This document shows, in pieces, positions 1,963 to 60,218 of a DNA stretch of 64,000 nt. Both the position numbers and the translations under genes were made by a program. The stretch is taken from the NCBI GenBank assembly GCA_965113315.1, contig OZ220366.1, one strand, 5' to 3'. This DNA comes from Podarcis vaucheri. Lineage: Eukaryota. The notes beneath the pieces are model-generated. The model searched no databases and had not been told where the DNA came from. It saw nothing but the letters and a program-made list of their open reading frames with translations. Positions within the stretch are counted from its first letter, which is position 1. Each line of letters starts with the position of its first letter.

Positions 1963-2489
1963 CTGTAACAGAAGGAAAAAAACAGTGAGACATAGAAGGT
2001 ATTTCACAGGAGTATTTCAGGGATCTCTATTGCAGCCTTCACATTTTTTTGTGTGCTGATTTGTCCCCCCGCTGTCCATGTTGCATTTCTTAGCTCTGTT
2101 TGTACTCTCCCACTCCAAGGATGGGCTGTTCTTTAGGTCAGGTAAAAACAAACAACAGTTACAGCTGTATACCCTTAGAGCTCATGGACAGACGCAGCTG
2201 TACAATTTTACACATCATTAGCTTTAGTCTAACATACGTTGAACCTAAGCCAATGCGGCGTTGTGGGGAGTCAGACACACATATAAATATGGTGTCACAC
2301 ACCCCATCTATGAAACTCACTTCCAAAATTAAAGTTAAAAACATAACTTTTCAAAAAGACGACAAGGCACACTTCTTAAAAGATAGAAAAATCAATAACT
2401 GCTAGAGTCCAAGAGTGAACAGCAAATCACAGAAACATTTACTAGAATGTGCTACTAGTATCACTTATTTTATTTATCTATTACATATA

Positions 2490-2666
2490 TGTATCACCTT
2501 TTCTTTCAAGGAGTTCATCTTCACAACAACCCTGCGCAGTAAATTAGGCTGAGAGCTTAGTGACTGCCTAAGGTCACCCAGTAAGCTTCATGGCTGGGTG
2601 GGGATTTGAACCGCGGTCTCCCAGGTCATAGTCCGGCACACTAACCGTTATACCACACTGGCTCTC
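2490..2666 (-). mobile_element. tRNA-derived SINE (Squam3/CORE-like)
   Basis: Reverse strand reads gagagccagtgtggtataacggttagtg...ggttcaaatcccc...cagcctaa...gggttgttgtgaagatg, with A/B boxes. Similar copies occur at 23108, 24105 and 39207. Confidence 0.8.
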
Positions 2667-3199
2667 ATACAGTGTGTATACATCCTATGCAGACATGGAA
2701 TACAACATCCGTCTCCCTCTACCTACACACCTAAATCCTCAACATGCATAGGAATCTATGTGGTCTGTACATTACAAACAAAACAAAATCCAGTGTATAT
2801 AGACTATGGATAGGCCCCTGTGCAGCTCTGCTTCCTGTGCACAATGGGTGTAAACCATAGCTGTCAACGTTTCCCTTTTTTAAAGGGAAATTCCCTTATT
2901 CCGAATAGAATTCTTCGCAAGAAAAGGGAAAAGTTGACAGCTATGGCAGAAACAGGGAGCTTTGGATACAGGCTCCCGACTCCGTGTGAAGAGAGGCATG
3001 GTGGGTAAAAATGCAAAACCATGGTGGACCGGGACTTCATCTGTAGGAAAAGGAGCGTATCCCAAGACTTAAACAATCAGTCTTATTTCTCTTGTGCCTC
3101 TATAAGCTGCACGACAGGCAAGCATTGAACAGGGAAGGCACTGGACAGCTGCACCTGCTGAATTTCTGCCTGGCCTTCTTGCAGCAGTTAAGGGCTCTG

Positions 3200-3800
3200 T
3201 CGCGGGAGAAATTGGAAGAATCACTCCTATATCCGTACATCGCCTTTCATTTCAGCAACTCCCGCATTACACGCCCCCTAGTGACGGAGCGTGTGCACGG
3301 AGGCATTCGAGTGTGTGCGTGCAAAATCTAGACTTTAGATTATGGGAAGGAAGGAGTATTGCAATCGTTCGGGATGCCACTATAGTCCTATATTTGCACC
3401 ATCCATAGAGTTTCCTCTTTCTCTAGCCTTAAGCAAGTTAAGTATCGTTCTACAATTCCCATAAAAATTCCTTCTCTAGCAACCGAGGCTGGGAAAGCGC
3501 CCCTCTCACCTTCAATGCGGTGTCGGCCAGGTATACGGCACACCAGCCCCCCAGCACGCAAACCACCACGGGCATCGGGATCATGTCAGCAGCAGAAACG
3601 ACACGAAACCAGCAAAACGAGCCAAGCAAAAAAATTAATCCCTTTACACTCCGGAACAAAGCGTCACACGGAACCACCGCGCACCAAGCACATTTCTTGA
3701 GCAGGAGGCTTCCGGATGCAGCACCCGGAAAACACGTGCCGCGTGCTGAGCTTCACATTCCCCTCCAAAGCACCGTCTATCAACACTTCGGGTTCCCATT
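3200..3800 (-). promoter_or_regulatory. CpG-rich MBTPS2 promoter / 5' UTR region
   Basis: High CpG density around exon 1; ETS-like CTTCCGG near 3710, E-box CACGTG near 3733, ZNF143-type TCTACAATTCCCA at 3449-3461. Confidence 0.7.
3510..3584 (-). CDS. MBTPS2: MBTPS2 coding exon 1 (ATG at 3584)
   Basis: MIPMPVVVCVLGGWCAVYLADTALK then AAG|gtgaga; resembles human [25 protein letters not shown]. Lies in CpG-rich DNA. Confidence 0.95.
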
Positions 3801-12601: not shown

Positions 12602-12640
12602 ATGTCAAAACAGCCAGCTTCGAATGTTAGAAGCATTCAG
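12602..12640 (+). CDS. SMPX: SMPX first coding exon (exon starts 12581, ATG at 12602)
   Basis: ttgctttcag acceptor; MSKQPASNVRSIQ; CAG|gtaaga donor. Matches the SMPX/Chisel N-terminus. Confidence 0.95.
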
Positions 12641-20273: not shown

Positions 20274-20411
20274 AGCCTTCCAGCTTCTTCAGAAGAGGAA
20301 AAGAAAAAGGTGCTCCCAGGAGCCAAGAAATTACCTGGCCCAGCTGTAAACCTGTCAGAGATCCAGAATGTAAAGAGTGAGCTGAAATTTGTCCCAAGAG
20401 CTGAACAGTAG
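20274..20411 (+). CDS. SMPX: SMPX last coding exon (exon continues to donor at 20427)
   Basis: tgtctgcag acceptor; [45 protein letters not shown]; AAG|gtatgt donor 16 nt after the stop. Total protein 86 aa. Confidence 0.96.
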
Positions 20412-23026
20412 TAACAGGAATGAAAAGGTATGTCCAGGGGTCCCTTACCTTATCTTTTTTTACCTAAACTACAATGAAATATAGGGAACTTTGCTCTGGT
20501 TACAATTATCAGTATGGTGAGATGGAGTTGAGAACCTTGCATAAAAAGAAATGTCATCTTGTGGTAATTACCCTTGATTGAAATATGCTTAAGAATCAGA
20601 TAAATTATTCCAAACTACAGTACTGCATTTATCCTGTGAGTACTCTTTTCGGGGTCAGGTCACTGCAATGCTTTCCCAAAGTGCCCTCTTAATTCTGACC
20701 AAAAAAATATCCCTTGAATAGACCATTACTCCCATTTTGCAAATGAAGGAACCCAAGCCAAGAAATAAACATACTGGTGGCATTTTTATTGCTCTGTAAA
20801 CCAAAGGCAAATTTTCGAAATCCAATCCTAATGCAGTAGCAGGTCACTTCTAAAATATTCAGAAGCTAATTTCTATATGACCTCAATTTGTTCATAAAAA
20901 TGCACAGGCTATAGTACACTCAATTAGCACTGCAATTATTCTTCTATTATTCAAATTATAATACATGCAGAGAGGCAAAATGTAGGTGGAACAATTATGC
21001 TTTCACTTTAAAATTAGAAACAATAGGCTTTGATCAACCAAAAACAAGTTGTTAATTGGTGCAAAAACAGATGCCTTGTTTCCATATAGTCTGCATGTGA
21101 AGTACAGCTTTTAAAAACCCCTCCCAGAAAGAAGAGGAACACACTTACAGAATAACGGGGCTCTCATATAGAGGCATCTACAATGTGCAGGACGGTGGCT
21201 CCACCTTCATGTTGTATAAGAGCACTAGAGACAAAAAACATACACTACAAATAAATGGCTGTTTGCCTAAATGTCGGAGCCTGCCATTACAAATGGTGCT
21301 TTTTAGGCATTAAATAACGACACTGAGGCTAGCAATCTTTCCATGGATGGAGGCAGCTCAATATCAGACTTCACCTCTTCCTCCAGTCCGTTTATTCTTA
21401 TTACCCTTTGTTCCTCTCCAGCCGCATGGCTGCATTCCAATGTCTCACGTTACCTACATCCGGTCAGGCTTTAACCCACCCTTCTAGGGTTACACTGCCC
21501 AGAGGGGGGGGGGACATAACTCCATATGAGGTCATGCATTCCAATACATTGTAAAGCTCAGAGTGCTGGTCACCGAGGTCAGGGAGCACCCTGCAATATT
21601 ACAAGCCTTTACCGTGGCTATCTGACTCCCACACCTAAATAGACAAATGCCGATAGCTCTGTCCCTACCCTTCTCCTCTTTTCTATCTCTTAGAATACAG
21701 TCCATGCTCCAGTCCAGGCAAACAGCTATAGCATAAAGCCTGAAGCTTTATTACCCAGAATATCACTGTGAGGTAGTACCCAATGTACCCATTCAAAATT
21801 GGGTAGCCTGGGTAAAGCATTAAAAAATGTTTTTCCCCCCCCCACACCTCTCATTTGTAACAGGGGAGGATAAAAACCTTTTTCTTCAGCTCATTGAACC
21901 AGCTTGGATTTGCTTGTTACGGTTTCTGCCTTACCTTTTCTTATTTTGGTCAATGGCCCCTTCTTTGTGTTTGTGGGAGGGAAGTTATTGGTTTGTCTTT
22001 TTTTCTTGTTTTATTATGTCTTTTGTGTTCTCATCTTGCATTTTTATGTTGTGAATCGCCCTGTGATCTTCAGATGAATGGCGGGATGGAGATTTAATAA
22101 ATAACACAGCTGAGGTTCCTACCACTGTTGCTTCTCACATGGAGGGGTTCGTTTAAGGTGCCTTGCAGATGACAAGCCAGAGCTTAGATTCACAGCTCCT
22201 GTAAGGTTACCTCAGGATCATGCACCATGGATGTGAGGCCCCTATTGCTACAATTAAAGGATCAATCTTTTCTTGGCTTTGTTTTGGGGAAAAACTTGAC
22301 GGGGAGGAAAGCACAATGTACAGGATGTAAAGTAAAGGAGAACATAATTAGAGACTGCTGGCTGAGAATATTATACAGAACAGCTAATTCTCTGTACATG
22401 GGCATTGTGCGATCTGTTTGAACCACAAAAATTGTGCTCAAGGTATTATGGCAACAGGCACTACCAAGAAAAGGTAATAATAAATAATGCAAATAATTAA
22501 CCTTACAAATTGCACACACTTTCCAGCACAGAGAGTCTTCCAAATACCTTCATGAAAGACAAGGGCTAATTGTTCCTAAGGACGTGGAGTACACCTCTTC
22601 CCCTATTAATGCTTTAGTTAGGTTTGATAGAGCTGCATAAATTGTAGCCAATTAAGCTGACAAAGTGATCTCGAATATCACAGCTCCAACCCGGTAATCA
22701 AGCTAATTTATTTCTCACACACTTTTGTCTTCCATCACTCCCTTTTGTAATTTTTCCTCATGTCACTTGATAGGAGGCTACCTAATTATGGTGTTCACAG
22801 TCCTGTGCTCAAGAGCAGGCTAAGTTATTACTTCAGTATAGTGCTTTTTAAATCTTTATACTTTGAGTATGTTTTCACTTCAGCTTTTTTTGCTGGAGTG
22901 ATTGCCTTTCATGCGTTGTGTAATTGTAAGCCCTCTGTTGCTGCCCATGAGACCACAGAACTCCCCTGAGGGTCTGAGAGACTTCACCTCCCATAGCCTG
23001 GGCTGTTGCCATAGGCCTGGACATGG

Positions 23027-23027
<1 letters not shown>

Positions 23028-23068
<41 letters not shown>
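23028..23068. repeat. (TA)n microsatellite
   Basis: Directly visible. Confidence 0.95.
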
Positions 23069-23071
<3 letters not shown>

Positions 23072-23107
23072 CAAGGCCTTGTTTTTCATCCCAGAGTTAG
23101 ATCTGCT

Positions 23108-23331
23108 AGAGCCAGTGTGGTGTAGTGGTTAAGAGCGGTGGACTCGTAATCTGGTGAACTGGGTTTGTGTCTCCGCTCCTCCACCTGCAGCTGCTGGGTG
23201 ACCTTGGGCCAGTCACACTTCTCTGAAGTCTCTCAGTGTTTGTTGTGGGGGAGGAAGGGAAAGGAGAATGTTAGCCGCTTTGAGACTCCTTCGGGTAGTG
23301 ATAAAGCGGGATATCAAATCCAAATCCAAAC
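23108..23331 (+). mobile_element. tRNA-derived SINE (Squam3-like, younger subfamily)
   Basis: gagccagtgtggtgtagtggttaagagc head, L2-like 3' hairpin, (tccaaa)n tail, flanking tctgct direct repeat. Confidence 0.85.
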
Positions 23332-24104
23332 TCTGCTGATCTATATATCAACCATTTACCCACGAGAACATTCACATTTTTACAGCAGTGTGTTCAACAT
23401 CATGGTTGTCATTATTGTCATCACAATTTATCTCCCTCCTTTCACCCTAAGGGTACCAGGGTAGGTTACAACTATTAAAACACAACGTTAATATTAAAAG
23501 CAGAGCTTTTTTCAGCTGGAACTCAGTTCCAGCACCTCTCAGGTGGGTGCCATTCTAAGAGAATGAGGGTGAGTTCCGGCATCTCTTTTTTTAGAAAAAT
23601 AGCACAGATATTACACCATATTTTTTATTTTTTTAAAAAAAACAGTTTAAAATAACTTATTTAGCACTGCAAAGTCAATTGGACTTATTCCAGTAAATCA
23701 GGCACAGGCAACTTCCATCCTTTCAGAACAATCTTAATCTGGCCAGGGGTGATACCAGCCGATTGGTGGAGAAGAATGGTTTGGCCATGCTGGGTTCTGC
23801 TTTGTCACAAAGCAGAACTGAACCCTGGTGAGTAGAGAGTTTAATCCTGCTTGGTGCTGCTTCAGCAGCACCTTCCCCTGCAAGGAATGCTCTGGAGAAG
23901 CAGACCCCTGCAAGGAGCAGGATTAAACCATCTGCTCACCAGCTAGTGAGCAGAGAGTTCATCCAGCTGAATGCTGCTTCGCCAGAGCATTGCCTACAGA
24001 AAAACAAACAAACCAACAATAGAGCTGTTAGGACGTATCCCCTAGCAGTATTGAAATCAGAATGCCAGTGCAGGTTAATGTGGCTACTTGCACATCACCA
24101 AGAC

Positions 24105-24623
24105 ATTTAATCCCCATAGCAACCCTGTGAAGTAGATTAGGCTGAGAGGCAGTGACTGGCTCAAGGCCACCCTTCAAAGTGGGGATTTGAACCTTGTTCT
24201 CATATATTCTGGTCCAGCACTATAGCCGCTAGGTAAAAAGGTAAAGGACCCCTGGACGGGTAAATCCAGTCAAAGGCAACTATGGGGTTGTGGCGCTCAT
24301 CTCACTTCAGGCAGAGGGAGCCAGCGTTTGTCCACAGACAGCTTTCTGGGTCATGTAGCCAGCAGGACTAAACTGCTTCTGGTGCAATGGAACACCATGA
24401 TGGAAACCAGAGTGCACAGAAACACCGTTTTTGTCCCTGCCACACCAGTACCTATTTATCTGCTTGCACTGGTGTGCTTTCAAACTGCTAGGTTGGCAGG
24501 AGCTGCGACAGAGCAATGGGAGCTCACCCCGTCGTGGGGGTTCAAACCGCTGACCTTCTGATCAGCAAGCCCAAGAGCCTCTGTGGTTTAGACCAGAGTG
24601 CCACCTGCATCCACCACACTGGC
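24105..24623 (-). mobile_element. Squam3-like SINE interrupted by a Sauria SINE
   Basis: Collinear with the 2490-2666 copy up to ...gccgcta (24231) and resumes at caccacactggc (24612). Confidence 0.75.
24232..24611 (-). mobile_element. Sauria SINE (near full length)
   Basis: ggtaaaaaggtaaaggacccct is the reverse of the (ACCTTT)n tail; conserved body cagtacctatttatct...ggttggcaggagctg; tRNA-like head at the right end. Confidence 0.85.
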
Positions 24624-25326
24624 ACCAGTATGCCTTTGCCAGTCATCATTGTCAGACATTGAAGGCTAAATCTGAAGTTAACAATTCAGGCCTGGAAAGA
24701 GTTGTACTCCTAGTTGCTTTTGTGTAGGGTGGGGAGGAAATGTTAACCTTTCTTTGGCTTTGAAAAGGCCTGTTAATTCCCTCAGTAATATGTAAAAGCA
24801 GGCCTGCAGCCTTTGAGTTGTGGTTTGTTCTTTATGTCATTTGCTGCCTAGGAGGAAGTTTTGTTCCAAATTGCTATTATGCCAAGCTCGGCCATACGAA
24901 ACAAACAATAATAATGTAAGTGCACTTAGGAGGAAAAGCTCTTGCTTCTTCTTCAGACAAACAGACCAGGGAGAGAGTGGCTTGCCTACATCTGCACTTT
25001 GCAATAGCTGCAACCCTGGCTCCAAAAGTGCTCAGTGAGAATGAGCTCCCCCCCACCCCGTACAAACATAAAAGGGTGAAAACAGCAACCCCAACAGCAA
25101 TGGAACTCCCGCTTGTCATGGGAAAGGAATATATAGGAACTGACATGATTTCAGCCCTCATGGGCAAGAGGTTGCTGCTTCAGAATCAAAGGAAATGCTA
25201 CCCACATGGATGCAAGTATAAGCAACGGAATGAGTGGCTTGGATTCTGAGAGCCAGGAGTGGAAGCTAGTGGAAGCAGACTTCCTTGTAGTCACTTCTTT
25301 CCACTGCAACCCTGAGAAACCTCTTC

Positions 25327-25940
25327 ATAATAATAATAAAAATAATAAATAAATTTTTATTTATACCCTGCCCTTCCCAGTTCATAAACCCAGGCTCAGG
25401 GCGGCTAACAACAAATTTAAAACACTTAATTGTAATACAACATAAAAGCAGCATAAAATACAGTATAAAAACATGAATAACAATAAAATTCAAAGTTCAA
25501 AAATCAATTTGATGGAAATACATCCAATAAACATTAGACAGTCACCAGGGCTAGCTGGCTAAATTAGTCCTACATGGGCCAGCGAGGAGGCCAGGGGAGA
25601 ATTAGCTGTGGGGTCCCAGAGCAGGTAATCTTCAAAAAAAGAGGGGGGGGGAGAGAAGGGAAATAAAAGATCCGGCTGAGTTCAAATTAAAGGCCAGGCG
25701 GAATAGCTCTGTCTTACAGGCCCGGCGGAAGGAGGTTAAATCCTGAAGGGTCCTAGTCTCATGAGACAGAGCATTCCACCAGGTCGGAGCCATCACTGAA
25801 AAGGCCCTGGCCCTGGCGGAGGATAGTCTGACTTCCTTAGGGCCTGGGACCGCTAAACTATGGTTATTCATGGACCTTAAGCTCCTCTGTGGGGCATACC
25901 AGGAGAGGCGGTCCCATAAATACGAGGGCCCTAAACATGG
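25327..25940 (-). mobile_element. 5'-truncated L2-clade LINE
   Basis: Minus strand encodes LGPSYLWDRL...RAFSVMAPTWWNALS...SFRRACKTELFRLAF (L2 ORF2 C-terminus), followed by a 3' UTR hairpin and AT-rich tail. Confidence 0.85.
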
Positions 25941-27980
25941 AGAGAGTTGGGTGCCCATGTAATGTGGGGTGGGGTGGGTTGTAGTGGGAAGAAATCCTAG
26001 AGAGCTGCTGAGGTTGATAGAACAAAGGAACTGACTTGGTATCAGGCAGATTCTTATGTTCTTCTGAACACTGCACATGTATTAATTCATGCTAGTATTG
26101 CATCTATAATAGCTGGAGAAACTGTCCTGATGCATTGTATGGGTCAAAATCACGAGTCATCACATGGGCTATTTCAGCTGAGTCATATTTGCTGAGAGCC
26201 TTGCATGGCTTTTTTCAAAACATGTATCCAAATCAGACACCTAGACCCAGAAATGGTATCCTTTCATACTGTGTAGCTGCTGGTGCACACACATTTAGAC
26301 CCTTTTATATTCATTGAAAGCATACCTGCAGTATGAATTCCTCATGGAATTGCCTCTCTACCAAAGGATTTGAGCTAGAGCTAGTGGCTAAGATACACTG
26401 GAAGCATCGTTGTGGTTTCTTTCCTTGACCCAGGGTGCTTCCACGCTGTCTGATTGTCAGGTGGGATTGAGTCACATACCGGCAAATTCAGGTTGCACAG
26501 TTATAGTTGGTTTTGAGATCTGGCACAACCAACCTATTTCCCCCAAGGAACAAGCAGTTGAATGTGTGGAAGAACATAATATCCCTGCAAACAGATCAGA
26601 ATAAATTCTCATTTAAATAGCCAACTTCATCTAATTTCCCTGCAAACAAATCAGGACTAATGATCAGTAAACCTACCTTGGAAATGTTTCTTTAAGCACA
26701 GCTGAATTCAGAAGCTGCTCTGATCTGCAGGACTTGTTGGTTCCTCAAGGAGGCGCTCAAGATCTAATTATTAAATATAATGTAAAAGCTTCCTTGCAGT
26801 TGGTTTTACTGAGCCATGCATGACCAGAACCTTTAGATGTCACTTTCGTTTGGACCTTTTTATTCAGAGTTTGTCGTTTTTAGTTCTATTTAGACACGAC
26901 AGCCTTAATGCATCTCTCTTCATCTCTGCCTCCTTCTAGGAACCTCATTTGGAGAAATGAATCTAGTCATTTTCTCATTTAAGTATCAAAGCTATGGAAA
27001 CTGTTCAGCTCTGTTCATAATTTGGCCTTCTGGGTTTCCCTGACAACCAGAAACATATTTCCTTCCTGCCCCCCCTTTCCTTTTTACTAATAATGTAAAT
27101 TCACAATATGTTCTTATCTCTTATTCAACAGCAGGAGAGTAACACTGCTTTTCTTGGCTATTTCTTGTTCTGAGAATAGTTTGGGATTTGGGGCAGATAC
27201 AAAAAACAAAACAAAGACCATAGTATCTAAGTTAAGTAACCCTTCTCGTTAAATAGCACCATTCTGTCAGTTGCTGAAAGCTGAAGGTGCCTCATCAGAA
27301 AGTTGCTCCTTTGCAGCTGAACTGTGATGGATCACAGCTCTGCCCTTTGTGTATGGAGGCCTTATTCAAAATCTCAACTATAAACATAACTGCTTATCCT
27401 AATATTAAATTGCAATGGTGCAAAGGAATAGTATCTGTCTATAGCTTACCCTCAGAATTTTTTTAATCCTTTGCAGCATGTAATACAATTTTCTCTCATT
27501 AAAAAAAAATCCAGATAGTTTATTTACCACAATTAAATAAAGGTATAAAATTGGATTTTTAAAAAATCACTTTGTGGACTCTCACAGGGAACTTGAAAAC
27601 ACTTTCTGGAGCTTGCCTGATCCTCCCTGTTTAATACTCTCTGTAATTTTTGCACCTTCTGATATTGCAACTCTTATTCGACAGCCAAAGATGGAAGGAC
27701 CCTGAGGTCAATCCATCATTAAATAAAACTTCCAGGAAAACATAATCACCTGACAGCAACCCAAGAGCTGCCATGTCCAGTGTTTGTTTGATATTACATA
27801 TAACATAATCAGCACTGGGAGAACAGTCAATCGGAGGCTCACGTCATGATACATACACTTCACTTCATTCTGAAGTGACATCGGTTAGGGCTGACATATT
27901 TACCAGCACTTCTCAGAGAGTACTGTAATTGGCACCGTGAATTTGAAGTCACTGAATTGTTTATCTCTCACTGATAACCT

Positions 27981-28109
27981 GTGTATCTGAAGAAGTGTGC
28001 ATGCACACGAAAGCTCATACCAAGAACTAACTTAGTTGGTCTTTAAGGTGCTACTGGAAGGAATTTTTTTATTTTGACTATGGCAGACAAACACGACTAC
28101 CTATCTGCA
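27981..28109 (+). mobile_element. Short Penelope-like terminal fragment with 11-bp TSD
   Basis: Flanked by ACTGATAACCT (27970-27980 / 28110-28120). Body ctgaagaagtg...gaaagctcatac...ttagttggtct.taaggtgctactgga resembles reptile Penelope pLTRs. Confidence 0.8.
27983..28020 (+). ncRNA. Minimal type I hammerhead ribozyme motif
   Basis: GTAT-CTGAAGA-A-[GTGTGCATGCACAC]-GAAA-GC-TC^-ATAC: core CUGANGA / GAAA / UH present, stem I GUAU:AUAC, palindromic stem II, vestigial stem III. Confidence 0.75.
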
Positions 28110-28262
28110 ACTGATAACCTACAAGCCAGCACAATTCTATGTGTGTTTACTCAGAAGGAAGCTCCATCATTCAATGGGGCTTACTCCCAGAAAACGGGGA
28201 TGTTAGTAACATTCAAATCATTTCTGAATTCCTGTTTTCTGGGCTGCTGGAAATGTTAGTTT

Positions 28263-28264
<2 letters not shown>

Positions 28265-28304
<40 letters not shown>
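28265..28304. repeat. (GT)n microsatellite
   Basis: Directly visible. Confidence 0.95.
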
Positions 28305-28305
<1 letters not shown>

Positions 28306-28574
28306 AGTGTCAGTGTCAGCATTGAGCTACATCCTTTCATTGGCTCCTTGAAAGTGTCCCCATTTTTATATAGCCTGTAAGAGCTGGGCTGTTCATTATG
28401 GTCACCCTTGAAATTATCATCGCTGTAACAAATTTTCAGTGCACTCAGCTAAAACATTTAGCATCATTCTCAATACGAAGTGGGGACATGACATAACATA
28501 GCGAGTTTACTCACATCTTCCACTGACCACCAATGTTAGTATCAATAGGGAAGATTTCCAATGAGCTAAAACTG

Positions 28575-28576
<2 letters not shown>

Positions 28577-28627
<51 letters not shown>
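28577..28627. repeat. (CT)n(CA)n microsatellite
   Basis: Directly visible. Confidence 0.95.
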
Positions 28628-28628
<1 letters not shown>

Positions 28629-30814
28629 TCTCAAAGTGGTCTCTCAGTTTCATCTATTATGGCGACACCTTTACACAGGCAGCATTTGAAGAGCATCTTC
28701 ATCTCTACAATTCTATGAATCTATGATAGCTTTAAAGGACTATGCACCAAGATTTAGGATTAGTTGATGGAAATTAATATGTAGAACCTGTCCAGTTACA
28801 CCATGGCCTGAAAGAGTAGCATTTGCATGAACAAAATGATGTCCAGTTAGATCAACAATGTAAATGGAAAAATGGCCTTGAAGTTTTAATTGATGTCACT
28901 ATCAAAGTAACTGTTACCAAAGTTTGCAGCAAGTAGATTTCCTTCTGCATGGGGTTGGAATAGATTACATTGAGGTCTCTTCCCAATCCTATGGTTCCAA
29001 GAGAGAATAAGAACTGAAGCTGAAAAAGACGACTTTCACACCACATTTTGCAATTTATTCTCTCCCCCCCCCCTTTTTCTTTTTTACTGCAATGTAGGGC
29101 AGTTTTGCTGCAGCAACAGGAGAGGGAAATGCCTTTGCCTTTTCGGCATTGGTCTACATACTTCTGTTACTTAGCAACAGCAGGGACCAAAAAGAAAGCC
29201 AAAGGATTCATAATTGCAAGTGCTTGCTGGAGGCTGAGAAAATGGAACAAGCCTGACACTCTTCATGTTGCATTTCTGCCAGCTGGAGACCAGAGTGTCC
29301 ATACTTACACAGCCTCGTTAAAAGTTGCCTATAGAATTAGATGTTTAAAAACTACTGATGGCTGTTGATCAATCAGGAAAGACTGAGCCTCATCCTGCCA
29401 AATGTTCATTTCTCTATTTTCCCCCTTGTAAGCACTTAACTGTGGCTTTAAAAATACACCTCTCTATCGCTGCAGAACTTTTGATTTGCAGCAGTGCCTC
29501 TCGTTTTCTCATTCTGACTGCGGTTGCTGACGGTATTAATTTACTCAGGAAGGTGGTCTCACCTGGTGCTGCTGGCTGAAAAGAATTTCACTTTACCTTC
29601 CCACAAAGGAAAACATTCCTTGCCAGCTAAACAGCTGTGGTTGCAGAGTCGTGCATAGGTCCTGTTGAAATCAAAATGTATATGGAAAGGAATGGTGGTA
29701 AGGATGCAAGCTCACATTAGATGGATTCTGAGTGGAGTCCAGGAAGCTCCTTTCTAGGGATAGGGCCCGAAAGAGATACACAGTTTGATGAACTTTTTTC
29801 TGCTCTCGTTCATAATGCAAACATTTGGCACCCGTTCTATCTGCAGCCTACAAAGCTTCATGAACTTTTGTGTTTCATCTATATAGGATTGCTTTGTTCA
29901 TTTCTCTTCTTCAAAAGCTTCGTTTGTCTGCTTTAGTGTTCTAAGAATGAAATATTTCTCAGTGTCTAAAGAAAGTCATTCCTTCCACATTTCTTCTGTT
30001 AAACCTATCTCCCCCCCCCCCATTCACTGACATGGGCCAAATAACAGATTCATTTGGAAGTTAATGGCATGCACTATGCAAACAAGTGCATGCATCTTGC
30101 CCATAACCCACAGGGTGAAATTCAGAGGGATTTTTAACAGTATAATTCAGCAATGCCTCGTCACTTTGCCTTTCTCCAAACAGTATAAAGGGCAACAGAA
30201 CTTTTTAAAAAAAATAATAATGGGGCATGTATGCTAACTGGGACAGTGGTGAGTAATGTGTCTATAAATGGGTTCAGCCGAGGAGTAAACATCACATGGT
30301 CTCTGGCTTAGATTCTTGTTGAGTGGGAAACATTTCATGCATCTTTGGGCATACAGCACACAATTGCTTGTTCTCCGCTGGAGAATATTTAAAGAACCTT
30401 AGCCTAATGCCAGTCATGTAATTGCATGTAAAGGCCGTGAGTGAGGTCGCAAGGACAAAGGGCTTGAAAGTGGCATACTAAGCACTGCTAATACAACGTC
30501 CACCATCTCCCTCTGCGTGTATGAATCTTAAAGTCAGTGTTTAATTACATGACAGACACAGCCAGCCAAGACATGTAGCCTGGAAGTAACCTACCCCTTT
30601 GCTTGAGATTCCCAGCACTGATGATTTCATTATACGTGGCTTCTCAAATGAGGTGCAGCAGATGGAAGTTTCAAATCTGCATTATTTTTTTAAAGAGAAC
30701 ATTAAACTCCAATCTATATGCTTTTCTTTTAAGAAAAGCAGATTTCAGCAATAACTGGAGAATACTGCCCTGTTATTGTTTTTAAATTGCCACTGACAAA
30801 TTAATATACAGTAC

Positions 30815-30945
30815 TTGAGCTCAGTTGGTTAGAGCATGGTTCAATCCCCATATGGCTCAAACCGCTGCTTATTCCTCCATTGCTGGGGGTTGGACTAGAT
30901 GCTCCTCAGGGTCCCTCCCAACCCTATAATTCTGTGATCTCTATG
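30815..30945 (+). mobile_element. SINE with tRNA-like head and CR1-type 3' tail
   Basis: agctcagttggttagagc...ggttcaatccc followed by gggttggactagatg...ggtccctcccaaccc...attctgtgat. Confidence 0.7.
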
Positions 30946-32020
30946 TTTCAGAAGAGCCATACTTTCTTAAAAGGATATGGCATTGTGTATTTCTGGAGGA
31001 ACATTGCCAGGACCACATGCTGCATTGGCTGCATGTGGTAGTTCTCTGCGTGGAACTGGCTTGCACAGCCAAACTGAGCAGTATTTACCCTGAGCAAGTG
31101 TTAAACCCTGCAACTTTGGCTGTGTGCACCAGTTTCTTCCATGGAGCCAGCGCCCACAGACAACACGTAATCAAACCCTCAGCTGATGTCACCCACCCAT
31201 CGGAGTGATGTCATCTGATTGACCGGTGAGTGGGGTTTTGAGGACATGGCCTCATGGGCAAATTAGGAACCTCCAGCAGACAGTGGAAATGACTCAAATA
31301 TTGGACAACGGAAATGACTCAAATATTGCTGGGAGTAAGGCTGCTGCCTTGAAATGGGATGCTAACAAGACACAAGGCATAGCAACCAAGCAAAGATAAT
31401 ACAGTATAATAAAACATATGTAATATATAAAACATACATATATCTCAGGCCATGAGGTTAGATTCACAGACTTTCCTGTATGCCTTTTTCTGGTTCTGTT
31501 TTGAGGCTCTGGATTGATATAATTACGTACGAAACCCTGACCCAGAATCAGGTCATCTACGAATGATTTAGCACTGGGTTCCCCCGAACAATACTGTAAT
31601 GGAAAAATGAGAAAAGCTTTTGTTATGTCAAAGTGTATTTTGGGGCATCAGTTTGCTGGTATGCTGCTATGCATTAATGAAATAATAAAAGGAAGCCCTC
31701 AGATACATGGTTATTATAGATAATCTAACTGAACCTGAAGTTCCAGATATTTATCAAGATGATATCAAGACAGCACTATTTGATGCTGCCATTTGTTAAT
31801 TGTGATGGTGATGGAGATACAAAGTCTCATACCTAGAACTTAACTAGTGGAAATTTAAAAGTGGCCCACTTTCTCTTCCAAAGGGAAGAGGTTATAGATA
31901 TTTCTACATTTACTTAGTATAGAAATAATTCAGCATAATGATCTGCTTTCTTTAAGATTCTCTGACCAATAGACAGCAACCTATTTGCACTTTGATTCGA
32001 TTCACACTTAACTGGGAGTA

Positions 32021-32259
32021 CAGTATTACCTCAGGTTACGAATGCTGCCGGTTGTGCGTTTTCGGGTTGCGGACCACGCCGAACCCAGAAGTACCGGAAC
32101 GGGTTACTTCCGAGTTTCAGCACTCACGCATGCACAGAAACACAAAATGATGCCATGCGCAGAAGCGCTGAATCACATCACGCGCATGCGCAGACGCGGT
32201 GCTGCGGGTTGCGAACGTGCCTCCCGCACAGATCACGTTCGCAACCCGAGGTATGACTG
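32021..32259. mobile_element. Tc1/mariner (Tigger/pogo-like) MITE
   Basis: CAGTATTACCTCAGGTTACGAA / TTCGCAACCCGAGGTATGACTG TIRs with TA TSDs; CpG-rich, so probably young. Confidence 0.9.
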
Positions 32260-34889
32260 TAATTACCATTGAACTCAATAGGATGAGTAGATCATGATAA
32301 GATTGCACTCTTAAGGCTATTAAACAACACAGAATGCTTATTAATAGATGCACCCTATGCTGTTTATATTTTATATATAGCACACACTACACTCTGCACT
32401 GGCAACTTTTCGCATTAATTGTTATCAAAATAGTTTACTGGCTCTTTGGGGCACATGATGTTCTTAACAGTAAGACTACAGTATTGAGCTAATAGGCACT
32501 GTGCACTTAAAACTGAGGACAAGCTCTTGCCGGTTTCAGTGTCATTTCATCCACCCACAGTTGCAAAGCTCACTCTTTAGGAGAGGAACAGCGAAGGAAC
32601 ATTTCCAAACGAAACTGCAGGGAGAATTTGTGTAGGCAGAGTGTAATTACTCAGATTGGAATGCAAGTACACTTGTGTACTCAGAATATCTCGAGCAAAA
32701 CTTTAGAAGTTTCATATGTTCTTTTGCCTTCCTTATCAACAGCAGCCTTCAGCCATTAGATTTTTATTTTTTTTAAGAGTAGATGTTCTTAGGTGTTTTA
32801 ATTGGTTTGTTGTTTGTGCATTTGCCACCCTGGGCTCCTTTTGAGAGAAAGGGAAGGATAGAAATTGAATATCACAATCATATAAAAAAACAGCATGATC
32901 AAGGCCAGCTCTACCATTGGGGAGAGTGAGCCAGCTGCCTCAATTGACAGGTGCTGGTTGGTGAGGAGTGGCAATAAAATGTTGAGGGACGGTGCTGTGT
33001 GTGTCACATGAGCTCATATAGGGCCCCTAAGCTAAACTCTAGTGTATTGTAGGGTTTTGTCTCTCCACCATTGTTGTAATAAGATCCAACTGTCATGGAA
33101 TGGGCGAGTGTCATCTTTTCCTTGCCCCCACAGGTAGCAAACATGGTATCAGACTAGGACCACAGAGACCCAGGTTCAATTTGCGATACAGCCGTGAAGT
33201 TAGTTTTGGTGATCTTGGGCCAGTTTACCTTTGTCAGCTTAACCTACCTCTCAAGATGTTAGGGTGGGGTGAGAAAACTATGTCCCCCCACCCTCAAACT
33301 CCTTGAAGCATAGTTAGGACAAAAATAATCATTGAAGATAGTAGGTCTGATCCACCAAAGCTATCTATATTCAGACATCTGGGAATGTGCCAGAAACAGC
33401 TCCCAATGCCTGAATGTTCTGAGCAGACATTTTCAGAACTTCCTTTGCATTTCTTGCTAATTGGGCCAATGAGACCAACACCCCAATCAGAAACAGGCTA
33501 CCTTAAATTCATATTGGGAGTTCTGTAAATTGTGACCCAATACATTCTCCAGCCATGTATTGTGATCGTCTAGGGATTCCACAAGCTGTCCCAAGCAATC
33601 AACATAAAAGGAGGCTTATCAAGTCCCTGAAGGATCACCCTATGTGTGGGGTGGATTACATTTAATTTTGTGGATCACAGGTTGCACAAAGCTGGAATAC
33701 AGCAATTTTTCTCCAGACTTTGAGTTCAGCTGGAACTAAGGATGCTCCCAACAGATATAAAATGTTGTCAAAAGTTAGTGAAAGAGATGCATAAATCAGA
33801 AGAAATGTTGGGTTGACAAATAATTTTTCCTTTGGATGGATGGTGCGAGTTGATAATGCATAAGGGAGAGCAGAGATTTTTATAGGACTTGTTAGTATAC
33901 GCCCCTGCTTTTGCTGATACACTGGATCATTATACTGTATTGTGAGCAATTTGTTATTGAAATGTCCCTTCTCACTTTCTTTTTTCATTTTTAGTATAAA
34001 CTTGATAAAATATTCACGAAAATCCACTCTGGGTCCAATCTACCTGTGCACAAACAGCAACTAAAACTGATTTTCTAACAGGTTTCAGATACTATCTGAG
34101 AAGAGGGGGAAATATCTGAAAGAAGAAGAGTGTGGATAAGCCAGGGACAGGGTAGTTAGAGACAGTATGCCTCTGGGTACAAGTTTACTGACACACCACA
34201 GGAGACAGATGTTGCACTTTGGTCCTGTTTCTAGTCTTCCCATAGGCATCTGGTTGGCCACTATGAAAACAGGACGCTGGACCAGATAGGCCACGGGCCT
34301 AATCCAGCAAAGCTCTTAATATGGTCTCATGGTCCAGCTCCCCACCCATGTCTCCCTTTGATGCGGAAATTAGAGACAGCTTTAAAAATGAACAGGGCTG
34401 GCATGTGAATAAACATATCTGCCTCCCCTGCTACCCCACCACCCACCATGTCTAGCTACGTCCACACAATATCACAGCAAACAATCCAATGAAAGGATAA
34501 AGCAAAATGACTCAGTGGGGTTTTGGTCTACAAGTCTCATTGGCCCCAATCCAGGGATGGGCAAGCACAATAAATGTGACTAGTAACACATTAAGAAACA
34601 AAAAAACACTAAGTGCATTTCTCATCCATACTGGATGAAATGGGTAGCTATAGTCTTGTGGGACTGTACCAACATACAAGTGTATTGGTTGAGTTACCCA
34701 TCTTTAATAGCATCCTCTTTCAGTACAAAGTTGATCTATAGATTTTCTTCCCCCACATAGCAGGAGCTTGTGAAGGTTTTATCTGACTCATGATGTTTGT
34801 CTCTATGAATAAGAATATATTGCCCTTTAGAATTCCCATGTATTTCCTCCAAAAATGCAAATGAATCTCATTTGGATTTTATTTTGCAG

Positions 34890-47530: not shown

Positions 47531-48124
47531 GCTAAAGGTCTGTGTGTCCACAAAATCCTAACACTCTAATCTGTAGGTGCTGATTTGATTTTCAGCTGAA
47601 ACTTCCTACGAGGAGAAATCACCATACGTGGCTTGTTGGCCCTGGGGGAATAAGAGCTAAACTTGTCTAAGAGTGAAATACACAGCTCGAGCAAAAGCTG
47701 CAGCAAAGTTCAGCCCTCCTCCTTCCATTCGTGATGCACCGGCAGCCACAGAAGCTCTATTTAATCAGCTTAAAGAGAAAGGAAAGCCACGGGAGACATC
47801 TGAGCTGGCACAAATCGTCACCTGATGCTGGCCAAGCAAGTGCTCTCATCTCCTGTGGACCATCTCCTGTGCCGGAAACAGAGGTGAGAGAAATGTCTGG
47901 AGGACGTTACTGAATTCAGCTTTATGAATGAATGAATGCAGGAGACAATGTATACTAGCAGGATGCTAAACTGGAAAGGGATGTGAAGGGCTCTGTTAAG
48001 TTGAAGGAGCAGAGCTGATGGTTGTTCTTCAAGTGATTCCTCGTCCAGTTGAGTTAATTCACAGCGGCAGTGTCTTTCCTTCTTTTCATTGACAAAACGG
48101 CTTTAGAGCATTTTGTTCTGCGAA

Positions 48125-49900
48125 ATGAGTTACTTTCTGTCCTACTGCAAAGGACATTGTGGTTCTGTGTTGTCTCAGTACCAAACCCTCCGCAGCGAAG
48201 GCTTGTTGTGTGACATTTTGTTGAAGGTGAAAGAAAATGAGTTCCCTGCTCACAAGTCTTTGCTGGCCTGTTCCAGTGATTACTTCAGGGCCATGTTCAA
48301 GAGTTATACCAAAGAATCAAAGGCTGCCATCATTCACCTGCAAGTCATCTCAGCCACTGGTTTGCAACACATTCTGGATTTCATTTATACTTCTTGGTTG
48401 CCTTTGTCTTTTGCCAGCCTGGAAGACACTTTGGAAGCCGCTACCTACCTGCAAGTGTCTGAGGCAATTGTCTTGTGCAGCCAATATTTGGCTAACAATC
48501 TTACCCTAGAGAACTGCTGCTTTTCTGCCAATGTTGCTGCAAGATTCTATCTTCCAGATGCTTTGTCAGCTGTAGAAAAATATCTCATTTTTAATTTCTG
48601 GAAACTTCTAGACCTGGATTTTGCAGAACTGCTAGAACTGAATTTCAGATCTTTGAAGGCAGTAGTTGAATGTTCAGATCTGCCTATGGTGAAAGAATCT
48701 AATTTGCTAGATCTATTGCTGAAGTGGCTGAAGTATGATAAATTGAGGCTGACACATACAACTTGCTTATTGGAACACATACGATATGGTCTTATTCCTG
48801 TGGAAAATCTGAGAAAAGTCTACACTCAATCAGAAGTGCCTCTAACAGCACCCATAAAATGCTTAATCATAAAAGCAATAAACTACCACTCATTCGTCTT
48901 TAGGCAACCTATCCTACAGGATAAGTACAGCACACTGAGAAACCAGAAGACGCGGATTATCCTGCTTGGAGGTATGATTCAACATGAAGGGCCCAGCAAG
49001 GATGTGGTGGCTTTTGATGTTTACAATCACAAATGGCAGATTTTAACACAGGTGCAGGATCGACTACAAAATCACTGTGTGTGTACAGTTGGAAACTTTC
49101 TGTATGTGCTAGGTGGAGAAATAGAAGATTTGCAAAGTGAAACGAAAAGTCCCACTTTAACAGTGACAAACAAAGTCCATCGCTATGACCCCAGATTTAA
49201 CAAATGGATACAAATCAACGGGATGCTAGAAAAAAGATGCCACTTTTCTTGTTGCATCCTAGAAAACACCATTATTGCAATTGGCGGTCAAGGTGAGGAT
49301 GGATCATTACATTCATCCGTCGAAGCCTACAACATTAGCCGAGACACATGGACAAAAGTTCGAGATTTGCCATGCAAAATCCATGGTCATGCCGGCACTG
49401 TTTGCAAGAATAACATTTATATATCGGGTGGCAAATGCACAAATCAAAGTAACACAAGTAAGGATTTGTACTCTTTGAGCACACTAGAAGGGCAATGGAA
49501 AAAGCAAGCCCCCATGAGCATTGCCCGGTTTGGGCATCAGATGGCCACCATAAGAGATTGCATCTTTACATTTTTAGGCCTTTATGAACCATTCTCTGAA
49601 ATTGAAAAATACAATCCTGACCAAAATCAATGGACTCGTCTAAGGCCATTGGTCTATGATCGATTTAGTTATGGTTTGGCTGTAGTGGAGGAAACTGCCC
49701 TTCTCATTGGGGGGAAGAAGTGGCAAGATTCCCAGGAGATTCCAACTCAGGATGTGGTGGGCTATGATATAGACAATGACTGTTGGGAAGAAATATGCAA
49801 AGCTTCGTTGCCTTGGTATGGATTGCAGTGTGCTGTGCTAGAGCTTTCTGAATTACTAGATGCTAAAGACATTCAACAACAAAAGAGACTAACTGTTTAG
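48125..49900 (+). CDS. KLHL34: Kelch-like protein 34 (BTB-BACK-Kelch), single coding exon, 591 aa
   Basis: Starts MSYFLSYCKGH, as recalled for KLHL34; BTB motif FPAHKSLLACSSDYFRAMF, BACK domain, kelch repeats with GG motifs; syntenic between SMPX and CNKSR2. Confidence 0.96.
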   Translation: MSYFLSYCKGHCGSVLSQYQTLRSEGLLCDILLKVKENEFPAHKSLLACSSDYFRAMFKSYTKESKAAIIHLQVISATGLQHILDFIYTSWLPLSFASLEDTLEAATYLQVSEAIVLCSQYLANNLTLENCCFSANVAARFYLPDALSAVEKYLIFNFWKLLDLDFAELLELNFRSLKAVVECSDLPMVKESNLLDLLLKWLKYDKLRLTHTTCLLEHIRYGLIPVENLRKVYTQSEVPLTAPIKCLIIKAINYHSFVFRQPILQDKYSTLRNQKTRIILLGGMIQHEGPSKDVVAFDVYNHKWQILTQVQDRLQNHCVCTVGNFLYVLGGEIEDLQSETKSPTLTVTNKVHRYDPRFNKWIQINGMLEKRCHFSCCILENTIIAIGGQGEDGSLHSSVEAYNISRDTWTKVRDLPCKIHGHAGTVCKNNIYISGGKCTNQSNTSKDLYSLSTLEGQWKKQAPMSIARFGHQMATIRDCIFTFLGLYEPFSEIEKYNPDQNQWTRLRPLVYDRFSYGLAVVEETALLIGGKKWQDSQEIPTQDVVGYDIDNDCWEEICKASLPWYGLQCAVLELSELLDAKDIQQQKRLTV

Positions 49901-52306: not shown

Positions 52307-55300
52307 TTCCTATTTCTATGCAGGATACTATGAAATTCTGGTACGATGCAGGAGTCCTTATTAAACTATTAAGTGATCCTGTTGCAGGTTGATTTTGACC
52401 ATAAGGCTATGGTTATGTCTAGAAATATCACTTGATGTACATTGCGAATTCATAAAATGTAGAGGGGGGATGCAGCAGGAGTCAAAACTCAACATTAGGA
52501 ACAATTAACACGATCGTTGTTCAAGCATTTTTATGTGAGAAATATACAAAATATCACAAGTTATAACAAACAAATCATGCAGTCAAATAATTTGTTTATA
52601 CAAAGAGACTCTTATAGATGATATAAATAGTTGACCGGACCTGTAAATTCATACAAATCTTAATGCATGAATTGCCATTCAGTCTTAATTGAATACAGAT
52701 TTACGTAAAATTAGCTGTAAAAAGGCCACTCTCCTGTACAGTTGTGCAAAGTTTGCAAGACGCTTGGAATCCAAAATGCAGCTGAAAAGAAACAAGCAAT
52801 CCTTTGATCCTTCTTTTAGTCCCAAGAGCAGAAAATAATTGTGCTCTTAAATGTTTATAAGTACATTCACTGCATTGAACAGACTATAGCTGGAAGCTAG
52901 CTGAGAGAGTACAATTCATAAGAAAGAATGGTTTTAAAAGATGTATCCCATTTGGGGGTTTATCAGCTCATCTCTCAACTTCTCCCATCTGCAGAAAAGC
53001 ATTAAGAAGCCACAAGGACTTTTGCTTTTGTCATGCTCAGTCTTGGCAAAAATTAAGGTGCTGATAGATAGAGGGCATCTCTAGGCAGGCACAGATGGGT
53101 TTAATCATTAATGCGGCAACTTCTGTAGTATTTTTGCTTATTGGGAAGCTGACTGTATGGGGCATCTCCAGACCAATTTTGTGGCAAGCATGTAGAGTGC
53201 AGCCAACCCCCTGCAATACAAGGGTCTCATGATACGAAGGTACCTAACATTCTTCTGGAGGTGTGAGGAATGAACTTTGCTTCCTAGTATCTCCCAAACA
53301 TCATCAGCACAAAACAAAGATTTTTGCTAATGTCATTCAAGGGCGAGTCTGACTGAGGGTGAACAGGCAACATGTAGCTCTCATGCATTACCTTCCTCAG
53401 ATGGCTTAGCTATGCTAAGGAAACTTCAACCATCCCTTTCCCAACACTGGAGTGTCCAGTGCTGCTACTGCTGCCTTGGAAACTACAAGTGGCCACTGTA
53501 AGCAGCACCCTCTCCCTCACTACCTCCCCTGATATTCCAAGGAGAGAGAAAGCTACTTCCTGTTACCAAGAGTTTAGATCAGTTCCTGCTGCTGACCTTC
53601 GTCTGCCCACCCTTGCTCGCATATGCCCCGAGAGAGAATGCAAAACGAACTGAACTAGAAAAGCAGCGTGTCAATTTCATCTCCTCCCTCCCTCAAAAAC
53701 ACACCAGAAGGTATATGCATTCTAGTGCTTGCTCAAGGATGCAGACTATAGGTGTGTATGCATTTATATTGAACGTGGAAATTGATAATGCTACCACCCC
53801 CTTCATCTGTGCACTCCAAAATAAAAAGATAAAATGGAAAAGGCCTGTGTCCATTTAACCCTAATTTCTCTAGCTAAATTTGCTACCTTTTCAACTCCAG
53901 GAGCTCCATAGCAAAGGATGGTATTTTCCCCCCAAATGTTAATGGTGAAGAGACAGAAGGGTGGGATAACATACGATCGCCATGCACATCACAAGCCACA
54001 CCTCCACATCGCAAGGGCACTAAGTTGTTTCACATCTGGAAAGGCCTGCACTGGACCTCTTGCACTGGAAACTCAAAGATTACCTGCAAATCAGACAATG
54101 GGATGACAGTGGAAAATAAATAGGAGTGCAATAGTTTGGGAGAAACATTGTATGGATTCTAAGGAACGCATGAATGAGAAGAAATGTTAAAGTGCCACTA
54201 GTTACAGCCATGCCACTTGTGCGAACATAATAATCCGTTTCACATGGCATGCAAGTAATTCTGTATCAATACGGATCTTGTTTTGGATAGAGGAATATCC
54301 CATTGAGCCTTCTTTCCGCTCAAATAATGATTTCTGGGAATTTTGTATGACTGAATTTGCATATAATGCTAAGCCACAGTTTATTGCTGTGTGGAGAAGC
54401 TTCAACAAGCGTGATGTCAGGCATATGTATTCCACCTACCCCACCTCCTCCTGATGGAAAGATGACTTCTGGCAAGCATAGTTTCATTTTTAAAGTATCT
54501 AGGCTTATAGTTATGTTGAAACCAGGGATCCTAGTTTAAAACAAACTCTGGCTTCATAATGCATTGTTTGAAGCTGAACTATTAGGAAACTGGCCAGAGT
54601 TTGTTTTAAATCAGGATATATGGTTTGAACATGACTATAATCCAAGATTCTTTAAAAGTGGAAGTAAACTAGTCACAAGTCCTCCTCTAGCTTACAGGAG
54701 AAGGAGAAGGGATGGAGGCATCTATGAGCCTAACTCTTTACTCAAGCTCATGGGGCCTTTTCATGGAGCACTATGGCATGTTTTTGTGTTATGTAGGAAA
54801 GCAGCCTATTAAGGGAACTGAGAACCACATGAATTGTGTATGGAAATTTATGTATTTTGATAATGTGCTGAACCCACCCACCTACGCCCCCTTCCTATTT
54901 ACCAGAGTTTTCAGAACATCTCATATTTAAAGCAGGAATTTATGTGAGCTGGCACATTTGAAACATTTTAAAGTTTGACTTTAAAAAAATCACTGAATGG
55001 AAACTTTTGGTTAACAGTACAATATATTTTTTTTCTGCAAAAGAGTCAGAAGATGCCAACATAGGGCAATAATATTGTCCAGTCAGGTCTCTGCCATTAC
55101 TGAAACAAGGAGAGCCCTTTATCCTCAAATTAAATCTGTGCTATAGGCTGTCTGTTAACCATCCCTCAAAAGACTGGAAAAACGAAACTTTGACTGTTTA
55201 ATATATAATCTAGCTTATGAAAGTCCAGTTTATCCCTCTTATTCCCTGACCGTTTTTTAAAATGCAATCCTAATCACAGCATTATACTTTTTTTCGTTTT

Positions 55301-59707: not shown

Positions 59708-59925
59708 AAGTTGCAAGAAAAGAGATTCCGACTAAACATTCAGAAAAACTTTCTGACAGTAAGAGCTGTTCAACAGTACAACAGACTCCCACAAGATGTG
59801 GTGGACTCTCCTTCCTTGGAGGTTTTTAAACAGAAGTTGGATGGCCATCCGTCATGGATGCTTTAGCTAAGATTCCTGCTTTGCAGGGGGGTTGAGTCCC
59901 TTCCAACTCTAAGAGTCTATGATTC
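59708..59925 (+). mobile_element. Older CR1 3'-end fragment
   Basis: Homologous to the end of ORF2 of the adjacent CR1 (ctaaacatt..gaa.aactt.ctgacagtaagagctgttc); ends ctatgattc. Confidence 0.85.
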
Positions 59926-59942
59926 CACTTATTCTGTTAAAT

Positions 59943-60139
59943 GTAAAGGTAAAGGGACCCCTGACCATTAGGTCCAGTCATGGCCAACTCTGGGGTTGCG
60001 GCACTCATCTCACTTTATTGGTTGAGGGAGCCGGTGTACAGCTTCTGGATCACATGGCCAGCAGGACTAAGCCACTTCTGGTGAACCAGAGCAGTGCATG
60101 GAAATGCTGTTTACCTTCCCGCCGGAATGGTACCTATTT
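59943..60139 (-). mobile_element. Sauria SINE, 3' part, interrupted by the CR1
   Basis: gtaaaggtaaagggacccct..., collinear with the 24232 copy until tacctattt, where the CR1 tail begins. Confidence 0.85.
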
Positions 60140-60218
60140 CATAGAATCATAGAATCATAGAGTTGGAAGAGACCACAAGGGCCATCGAGTCCAACCCCCT
60201 GCCAAGCAGGAAACACCA

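Follow-up and report, generated by a model that had tools for sequence, protein, structure and literature searches.

Minimal hammerhead ribozymes of Penelope-like elements (PLEs) were defined by Cervera & de la Pena (2014, PMC4209133), where they occur mostly as single dispersed motifs whose monomers remain uncleaved and whose dimers are cleaved at a low level. In the Penelope element of D. virilis the intron ends at helix I (PMC4209133), and a TATA-less internal promoter together with a 5' intron was described for the same element by Schostak et al. (2008, PMC2377424). PLEs are characterised by truncation at the 5' end, by inverted 5' copies and by a tail (Craig et al. 2021, PMC8557442). Penelopes of Adineta vaga possess target-site duplications (TSDs) of 8-10 bp, solo pseudo-LTRs (pLTRs), head-to-head inversions and pLTRs with a TATA-20 bp-Inr layout (Arkhipova et al. 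2013, PMC3846280).

For the Poseidon element PAc of Anolis carolinensis, Frangieh et al. (2024, PMC11167929) reported internal priming 111-118 nt past the start of stem II. The main template is unprocessed RNA, cleavage needs the protein of the element, and RNA-seq showed no ends at the cut site. Non-LTR retrozymes are short, non-coding, PLE-related units with a type I hammerhead, which are also found as dispersed monomers (PMC7229834; 10.64898/2026.07.22.740005). According to Li, Clavereau & Pollet (2026, 10.64898/2026.07.22.740005), retrozymes derive from pLTRs, one of nine dimers was cleaved, and about 43% of the frog copies are intronic.

The window considered here, that is, the whole 64-kb stretch of DNA analysed, contains a TSD-flanked insert with a hammerhead of this kind (Table 1), which adds one more case to the solo minimal hammerheads of PLE type already described. 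We are fairly confident that it represents a young, unfixed short copy of a high-copy repeat, likely of a PLE pLTR leader, which was likely written by the reverse transcriptase of the parent element from uncleaved RNA into a staggered break, and that its lone hammerhead is predicted not to cut the SMPX pre-mRNA.

Table 1. Features of the insert and of the surrounding SMPX intron (positions in the window)
Feature	Position	Strand	Basis or remark
Inferred last SMPX intron, post-stop	20428..34889	+	donor GT 20428, candidate acceptor AG 34888-34889, AATAAA 35165; 14,462 bp
Overlapping ATTAAA/AATAAA	27532..27541	+	outside the element; chance-level
5' TSD copy	27970..27980	+	repeat comparison; one 11-mer only in the empty site
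Insert, 129 bp, member of a high-copy repeat family	27981..28109	+	absent from X15 and X3 contigs
Minimal type I hammerhead	27983..28020	+	helix I 4 bp, CUGAAGA + A, helix II 5 bp, CAUG loop, GAAA, GC, UC; no intramolecular helix III
Helix I	27983-27986/28017-28020	+	4 bp
C3-A9 core	27987-27993	+	CUGAAGA
Extra A between 9 and 10.1	27994	+	
Helix II	27995-27999/28004-28008	+	5 bp, 4-nt loop; G27995-C28008 = G10.1-C11.1
Perfect palindrome, 14 nt (helix II + loop)	27995..28008	.	predicted 14-bp intermolecular duplex
G12-A15.1	28009-28012	+	GAAA
Self-complementary AGCU	28012..28015	+	helix III possible only between two molecules
GC	28013-28014	+	palindromic 15.2-16.2
U16.1-C17	28015-28016	+	UC
Predicted scissile bond after C17	28016..28017	+	intact in DNA; family depth without a step here
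T-rich tract ending CAG, acceptor-like	28064..28086	+	sense to SMPX
3' TSD copy	28110..28120	+	first 4 nt likely = family 3' end (family reads align through 28113)

The hammerhead core (CUGANGA, GAAA, UH) and helices I and II are present in the insert. An earlier interpretation of the window from its letters only (the sequence-only reading) had proposed a complete core with a predicted cut after C28016, and reading the motif position by position bears this out. A minimal-hammerhead descriptor finds one match in the window on both strands versus none in 300 first-order shuffles. All three traits of the metazoan PLE minimal hammerheads are present, namely the extra base between 9 and 10.1, the G10.1-C11.1 pair, and a palindromic 15.2-16.2 without helix III. 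The Penelope-type assignment of the same reading is upheld by this architecture and by the match to a turtle motif described below. Its 14-nt palindromic helix II holds as a 14-nt palindrome but not as a hairpin, in which only 5 bp and a self-complementary 4-nt loop are formed. The covariance-model search that it recommended gave no support, since Rfam hammerhead models produce no match at E<=10 in 3 kb or in 201 bp around the insert; the motif is devoid of helix III. Weak Rfam matches to snoRNAs and cis-elements near the insert were rejected, their scores being far under the gathering scores.

The predicted probability of helix II is 0.94 in a 151-nt, 0.8 in a 301-nt and 0 in a 701-nt segment, and that of helix I is 0.13, 0.5 and 0, respectively. 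These values shift with length, therefore the hammerhead fold depends on its context.

The closest printed relative is the Chrysemys picta row in Fig. S3 of PMC4209133, in which 29 of the 34 positions outside loop II are identical to the insert hammerhead (compared by eye). All five differences keep the structure: four belong to two compensatory pairs, and one is at H17. Both motifs have a 4-bp helix I, CUGAAGA with an extra A, G10.1-C11.1, GAAA-GC-UH and no helix III. They differ in loop II, which is a self-complementary tetraloop in the insert and a non-palindromic 7-nt loop in the turtle row, and in position 17 (C17 versus U17). The turtle row carries no asterisk, hence PMC4209133 does not link it to a PLE ORF, and the insert family is not listed in the available part of that paper.

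The insert is bounded by direct repeats identical in 11 of 11 positions, with a spacer of 129 bp. Positions 27400-28260 were compared with four of the 24 listed public sequencing runs at 82% likeness. They included contigs of a relative, organism E (X15), contigs of another sample of the same species label (X3), and raw DNA reads (X21). For X15 and X17, which are contigs, an RNA origin is only a guess, and strand, starts and ends are not readable from contigs. No position at which molecules start or stop in large numbers was recorded in these runs; as they include no raw RNA, this has no bearing on cleavage. The X15 contig skips exactly 140 bp (129 + 11) and leaves a single 11-mer, i.e., an empty site, and the direct repeats are therefore a true TSD. 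The X3 contig likewise lacks the insert and has 20 other letters at the joint, including a short local duplication of the right half of the target. Thus, the 11-bp TSD of the sequence-only reading is confirmed by repeat identity and by the 140-bp gap, and the empty site in relatives, to be sought by PCR, is already seen in public reads (X15; also X3 with the same species label). Of the bounds proposed there, the TSD-flanked length of 129 bp is correct, and the start at GTAT is not, as the insert begins 2 nt earlier, at 27981.

Since both the relative and the same-label sample have the empty site, the insertion into the SMPX intron is young and unfixed. The X3 individual may be heterozygous because contigs drop rare alleles. 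The flank in the window differs from both X3 and X15 by seven substitutions and two indels in about 700 bp; therefore, the filled haplotype is a distinct lineage. In the X3 empty allele, three bases at 27958-27969 are replaced by 11, ten of which copy the sequence immediately to the right of the insertion point. This short templated insertion lies some 10 nt away from the site of the insert and may hint at a break-prone spot.

To the right of the insert, the flank 28125-28200 has low read depth and a separate set of loose ends at 28127, which places the insertion at the border of an older repeat. The segment 28134-28160 has an inverted match at 57850-57876. An imperfect hairpin at 28175-28250, which scores 24 bits against the SNORD121A model (cut-off 44), is probably a decayed inverted repeat.

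In X21, 4,888 of the 3,467,070 raw DNA reads align; mean depth is about 2,350-3,300 on 27980-28066 and 0 on 27400-27950. With a genome of 1.2-2.0 Gb and even sampling assumed, and with summed contig depths left aside, the family would comprise about 11,000-19,000 copies, which is an order of magnitude only, because the X21 library is a targeted capture. The insert family thus numbers roughly 10^4 copies or more, and the SMPX copy is one among thousands. Organisms E and F likewise carry the family in abundance. Within the 64-kb window, self-BLAST of the element gave no second copy (best outside match 25 nt, E 0.31).

At 28028 and 28043 this copy carries the majority base of the family (75%). 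At 28089, 28096 and 28108 it has near-private bases, unlike about 90-99% of the family reads; such private changes are slightly above the level of about 1% in its flanks. The essential G12 lies at a CpG and is replaced by A in 313 of 2,979 family reads, as would be anticipated for copies not under selection; at C17, 463 of 3,060 reads have U. Among the variant positions listed (eight more exist), none reaches 5% in the family helices, hence there is no covariation signal there.

The ends of the family were read from the best six loose ends per run (444 more exist) and from 15 of 51 joints, so that the share of copies at each end is rough. Among the ends listed, 763 reads continue 5' of 27981 into one shared upstream sequence (agreement 0.9), 196 reads stop at one position, 27983, and have flanks that are unrelated (agreement 0.37), and 176 reads diverge behind 28113 (agreement 0.41), which is a sharp 3' end. 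Opposite-strand joints occur at 27981-27984 among the 15 of 51 joints in X21, with 9-16 reads each; they belong to the family and not to this copy. The family therefore comprises long members, copies starting at helix I and 5' inversions at the same place, with a fixed 3' end. Because more reads extend 5' of 27981 than stop at 27983, this copy is a short form of a longer element. A short non-autonomous unit, as the sequence-only reading had it, is retained as a class with a sharp start at 27983, but a self-standing mini-element is contradicted by the 763 reads running further 5'.

In the shared upstream sequence, inspected by eye, an AT-rich box lies 19 nt before TCAGT, and the A of this motif is 1 nt before the insert. 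The fixed 3' end lies about 115-119 nt past the start of helix II; it likely coincides with the initial 4 nt of the right TSD copy, and 9 of 12 positions agree between the family 3' end and the target. Family depth is 2,979, 3,060, 3,123 and 3,197 at 28009, 28016, 28024 and 28028, respectively. Across the scissile bond it rises by 2%, with a slope equal to that of the neighbouring positions and no step; therefore, copies made from the 3' cleavage product can account for only a small percentage. Between 28067 and 28124 the depth falls, but this was rejected as a real end; it is ascribed to the breaking of alignments at an indel in the T tract, where loose ends occur (28075-28076).

Inverted 5' copies and a fixed 3' tail downstream of the hammerhead, both found at the family level, an upstream TATA/Inr-like stretch that this copy lacks, and the 11-bp TSD of this copy agree with PLE traits, and the insert family likely belongs to the PLEs, judging by these sequence features. 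Pattern scans of the sequence collection for a link to an RT/GIY-YIG ORF yielded nothing real, and the reads are too short for it. The 16 loci of the collection (13 + 3) picked up by these scans share with the insert at most 34 nt in BLAST (L001, L008); these longest matches lie in unrelated AT-rich coding DNA without a hammerhead and were rejected as chance. The parent element may, as a guess from turtle and reptile repeats, belong to the Neptune clade.

The insert family resembles PAc in having a hammerhead about 110-120 nt upstream of a fixed 3' end and a putatively uncleaved RNA as template. By eye, the printed PAc template (PMC11167929) also shows an AT-rich box and an Inr-like motif shortly before its hammerhead. 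Outside the core the two sequences appear unrelated by eye. The ORF of PAc starts at stem II, whereas the ATG in loop II of the insert meets a stop after 9 codons, and PAc priming is described as non-homologous to the target, whereas about 4 nt match here. The Penelopes of A. vaga (PMC3846280) are similar to the insert and its family in TSD size (11 bp here), solo pLTR, inversions, and the layout of the AT-rich box and Inr-like motif. Their pLTRs measure about 180-220 bp including the TATA box, whereas the insert has 129 bp and lacks it. Lone solo pLTRs of A. vaga have no TSD and are ascribed to recombination or deletion, in contrast to the insert with its TSD and empty site.

The insertion could have proceeded as follows. 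The GIY-YIG endonuclease of the parent element would make nicks staggered by 11 bp, and the nicked strand would prime synthesis at the fixed 3' end of the family, helped by the match of about 4 nt to the target. The family copies retain both sides of the scissile bond, which argues for an uncleaved RNA template. Synthesis would stop at 27981, 1 nt past the Inr-like motif of the longer members, likely the 5' end of the RNA. Repair left the 11-bp duplication. The copy would then reside as a passenger in the intron, without the upstream TATA-like box and without a partner hammerhead in the gene.

In a wider version, which we put forward tentatively and hold to be somewhat less probable than an even chance, solo Penelope hammerheads are complete leader cDNAs of the uncleaved mRNA of the parent, strong-stop-like products that run from a TATA/Inr start before helix I to an internal priming site about 130 nt downstream. 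If true, this could account for the occurrence of lone minimal hammerheads by the thousand in animal genomes, for inversions that begin at helix I, and for the origin of full-length copies from tandem read-through RNA only. The palindromic helix II, according to the folding model, would keep pairs of family RNAs in a non-cutting duplex. Such a start-to-priming-site origin was not found in print in the open-access literature. The upstream TCAG could alternatively be a splice acceptor instead of an Inr, by analogy with the D. virilis Penelope, whose TATA-less promoter weakens the promoter reading of the upstream stretch. A copy that has lost the AT-rich box is not necessarily silent, because that promoter is internal and TATA-less.

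Alternatively, the short form of the insert could be an ordinary case of 5' truncation at random, in which a PLE copy happened to stop at the hammerhead, with the same origin and the same lack of host function; we give this a substantial, though minority, chance. 5' truncation is the rule for PLEs (PMC8557442; 10.64898/2026.07.22.740005), 763 reads extend further upstream, and this copy begins at 27981, off the peak at 27983. Even truncation, on the other hand, would give neither the 196 reads with unrelated flanks that stop at 27983 nor the clustering of inversion joints at 27981-27984. Given that this copy has its 5' end 1 nt past the Inr-like A, and that the ends or inversions of other copies fall no more than 3 nt from it, the RNA's own 5' end is favoured over random truncation at moderate odds. 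A SINE-like short subfamily with its own 129-bp masters, mobilised in trans by PLEs, would account for the part of the family that is sharp at both ends, for the clean TSD and for the high copy number, and non-autonomous PLE derivatives are known (PMC8557442). Most reads at the 5' edge continue into the shared sequence, and diagnostic changes marking a short subfamily are absent, the three changes of this copy being nearly private, so that independent masters are improbable.

We regard it as equally improbable that the insert is a monomer or fragment of a non-LTR retrozyme, i.e., of a tandem protein-free unit that spreads via circular RNA with PLE enzymes. Four of five surveyed reptiles have retrozymes, with a mean unit of 176 bp, many monomers and PLE-derived sequence (10.64898/2026.07.22.740005), and the TSDs of retrozymes exceed 4 bp (PMC7229834). 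Retrozymes are defined by tandem units, and classic ones have canonical hammerheads with loop 1-loop 2 contacts (PMC7229834), whereas the insert is a single copy with a minimal hammerhead. Tandem units are absent at this locus, and the head-to-tail join of 28109-28113 to 27981 is absent among the 15 of 51 raw-read joints listed. The shared upstream sequence differs from the 3' end of the insert, and the family ends are sharp and not permuted. A longer tandem unit would still be compatible with these data.

Coding pieces of SMPX were located near 12602 and 17428 and at 20277-20408, the last of which corresponds to Pfam Chisel/SMPX (E 2e-20). The intron that follows the stop codon is the inferred last intron of SMPX, and the sense insertion into it agrees with the sequence-only reading as far as this putative gene structure goes. 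The donor lies 7,553 nt and the acceptor 6,780 nt away from the insert. The AATAAA at 27536-27541 is located 440 nt before the insert; the intron has 18 such hexamers, one of them nearer (27722), and at 39% of intron positions an AATAAA lies within 500 nt upstream. The candidate poly(A) site noticed previously is thus correct in its distance of about 440 nt, but not in its meaning, since 39% of the intron positions do as well. Coupling of the hammerhead to poly(A) was rejected, as this proximity is at chance level. Two ATTAAATAAA decamers, 186 nt apart, were observed at the intron sites 27536-27541 and 27722-27727.

Folding was calculated with a nearest-neighbour model, which takes no account of tertiary contacts or proteins. 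When two molecules pair in trans, the predicted energies are -11.1 kcal/mol for the double hammerhead, -13.6 for the free monomers and -30.6 for the structure with the 14-bp duplex. The active dimer is thus predicted to be about 19 kcal/mol less stable than the duplex through helix II, and the latter structure is devoid of helix III at 37 and 30 C, both for the 38-mer and for the whole insert. No cis dimer is possible because the window, which holds the whole inferred SMPX unit, has one hammerhead. The lone hammerhead of the SMPX intron is therefore predicted by this model to be inactive.

It might still be supposed that the hammerhead cuts SMPX pre-mRNA via a trans partner or a PLE protein and shifts termination or the choice of the last exon. 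Its core bases are all intact and lie in sense orientation, the PAc hammerhead cleaves upon binding of its protein (PMC11167929), and the family sequence is abundant in two runs whose RNA nature is a guess. Against this, PLE monomers showed no cleavage and dimers little (PMC4209133), eight of nine frog dimers stayed uncleaved (10.64898/2026.07.22.740005), and introns cut by a slower hammerhead still splice (PMC2995048, citing Dye 2006 and Fong 2009). The window has only one hammerhead, the predicted active dimer (-11 kcal/mol) competes with the helix II duplex (-31), the poly(A) hexamer does not exceed chance expectation, and the unfixed insertion sits in an intron beyond the stop codon. Such cutting is very improbable, and an effect of the hammerhead on SMPX regulation is unlikely. 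The influence on termination or last-exon choice suggested by the sequence-only reading is not supported, given the single hammerhead in 64 kb, the favoured inactive duplex, the chance-level hexamer and the same-label sample without the insert.

The T-rich tract ending in CAG lies about 25 nt before the family 3' end. By a crude count of pyrimidines its AG (28085-28086) scores the same as the candidate acceptor of the intron, as do 52 of the 982 intronic AGs. It may be the acceptor of the parent element's own intron, and as a route to a cryptic exon it is more plausible than cleavage.

For SMPX itself the insertion has little importance, as it is young, unfixed and one of thousands; about 43% of the comparable frog copies are intronic. 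Its value is that of a clean specimen, in which an empty site and a TSD are combined with sharp family ends and an intact scissile bond. It thereby lends in vivo support to the use of uncleaved RNA with internal priming, which has so far been described in vitro and for another element (PAc, PMC11167929). Both the filled and the empty allele occur within one species label, so the cutting of host pre-mRNA by a lone PLE hammerhead could be tested allele against allele. The insertion site could also serve as a presence/absence marker.

Other features of the window were also recorded. A first exon near 3585-3450 (minus) is presumably MBTPS2-like. The intronless frame at 48107-49897 encodes 597 codons with BTB-BACK-Kelch organization; by its synteny with SMPX, this is likely KLHL34. 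An open frame of 1,001 codons at 63224-60222 (minus) has endonuclease- and RT-like motifs and is preceded upstream by a 284-codon frame (64000-63149, minus); we take the two to be a nearly intact LINE, presumably of the CR1 type. Long inverted repeats at 54461-54684 and 59714-60371, with arms of 92 nt and 185 nt, are probably MITE-like or LINE-related.
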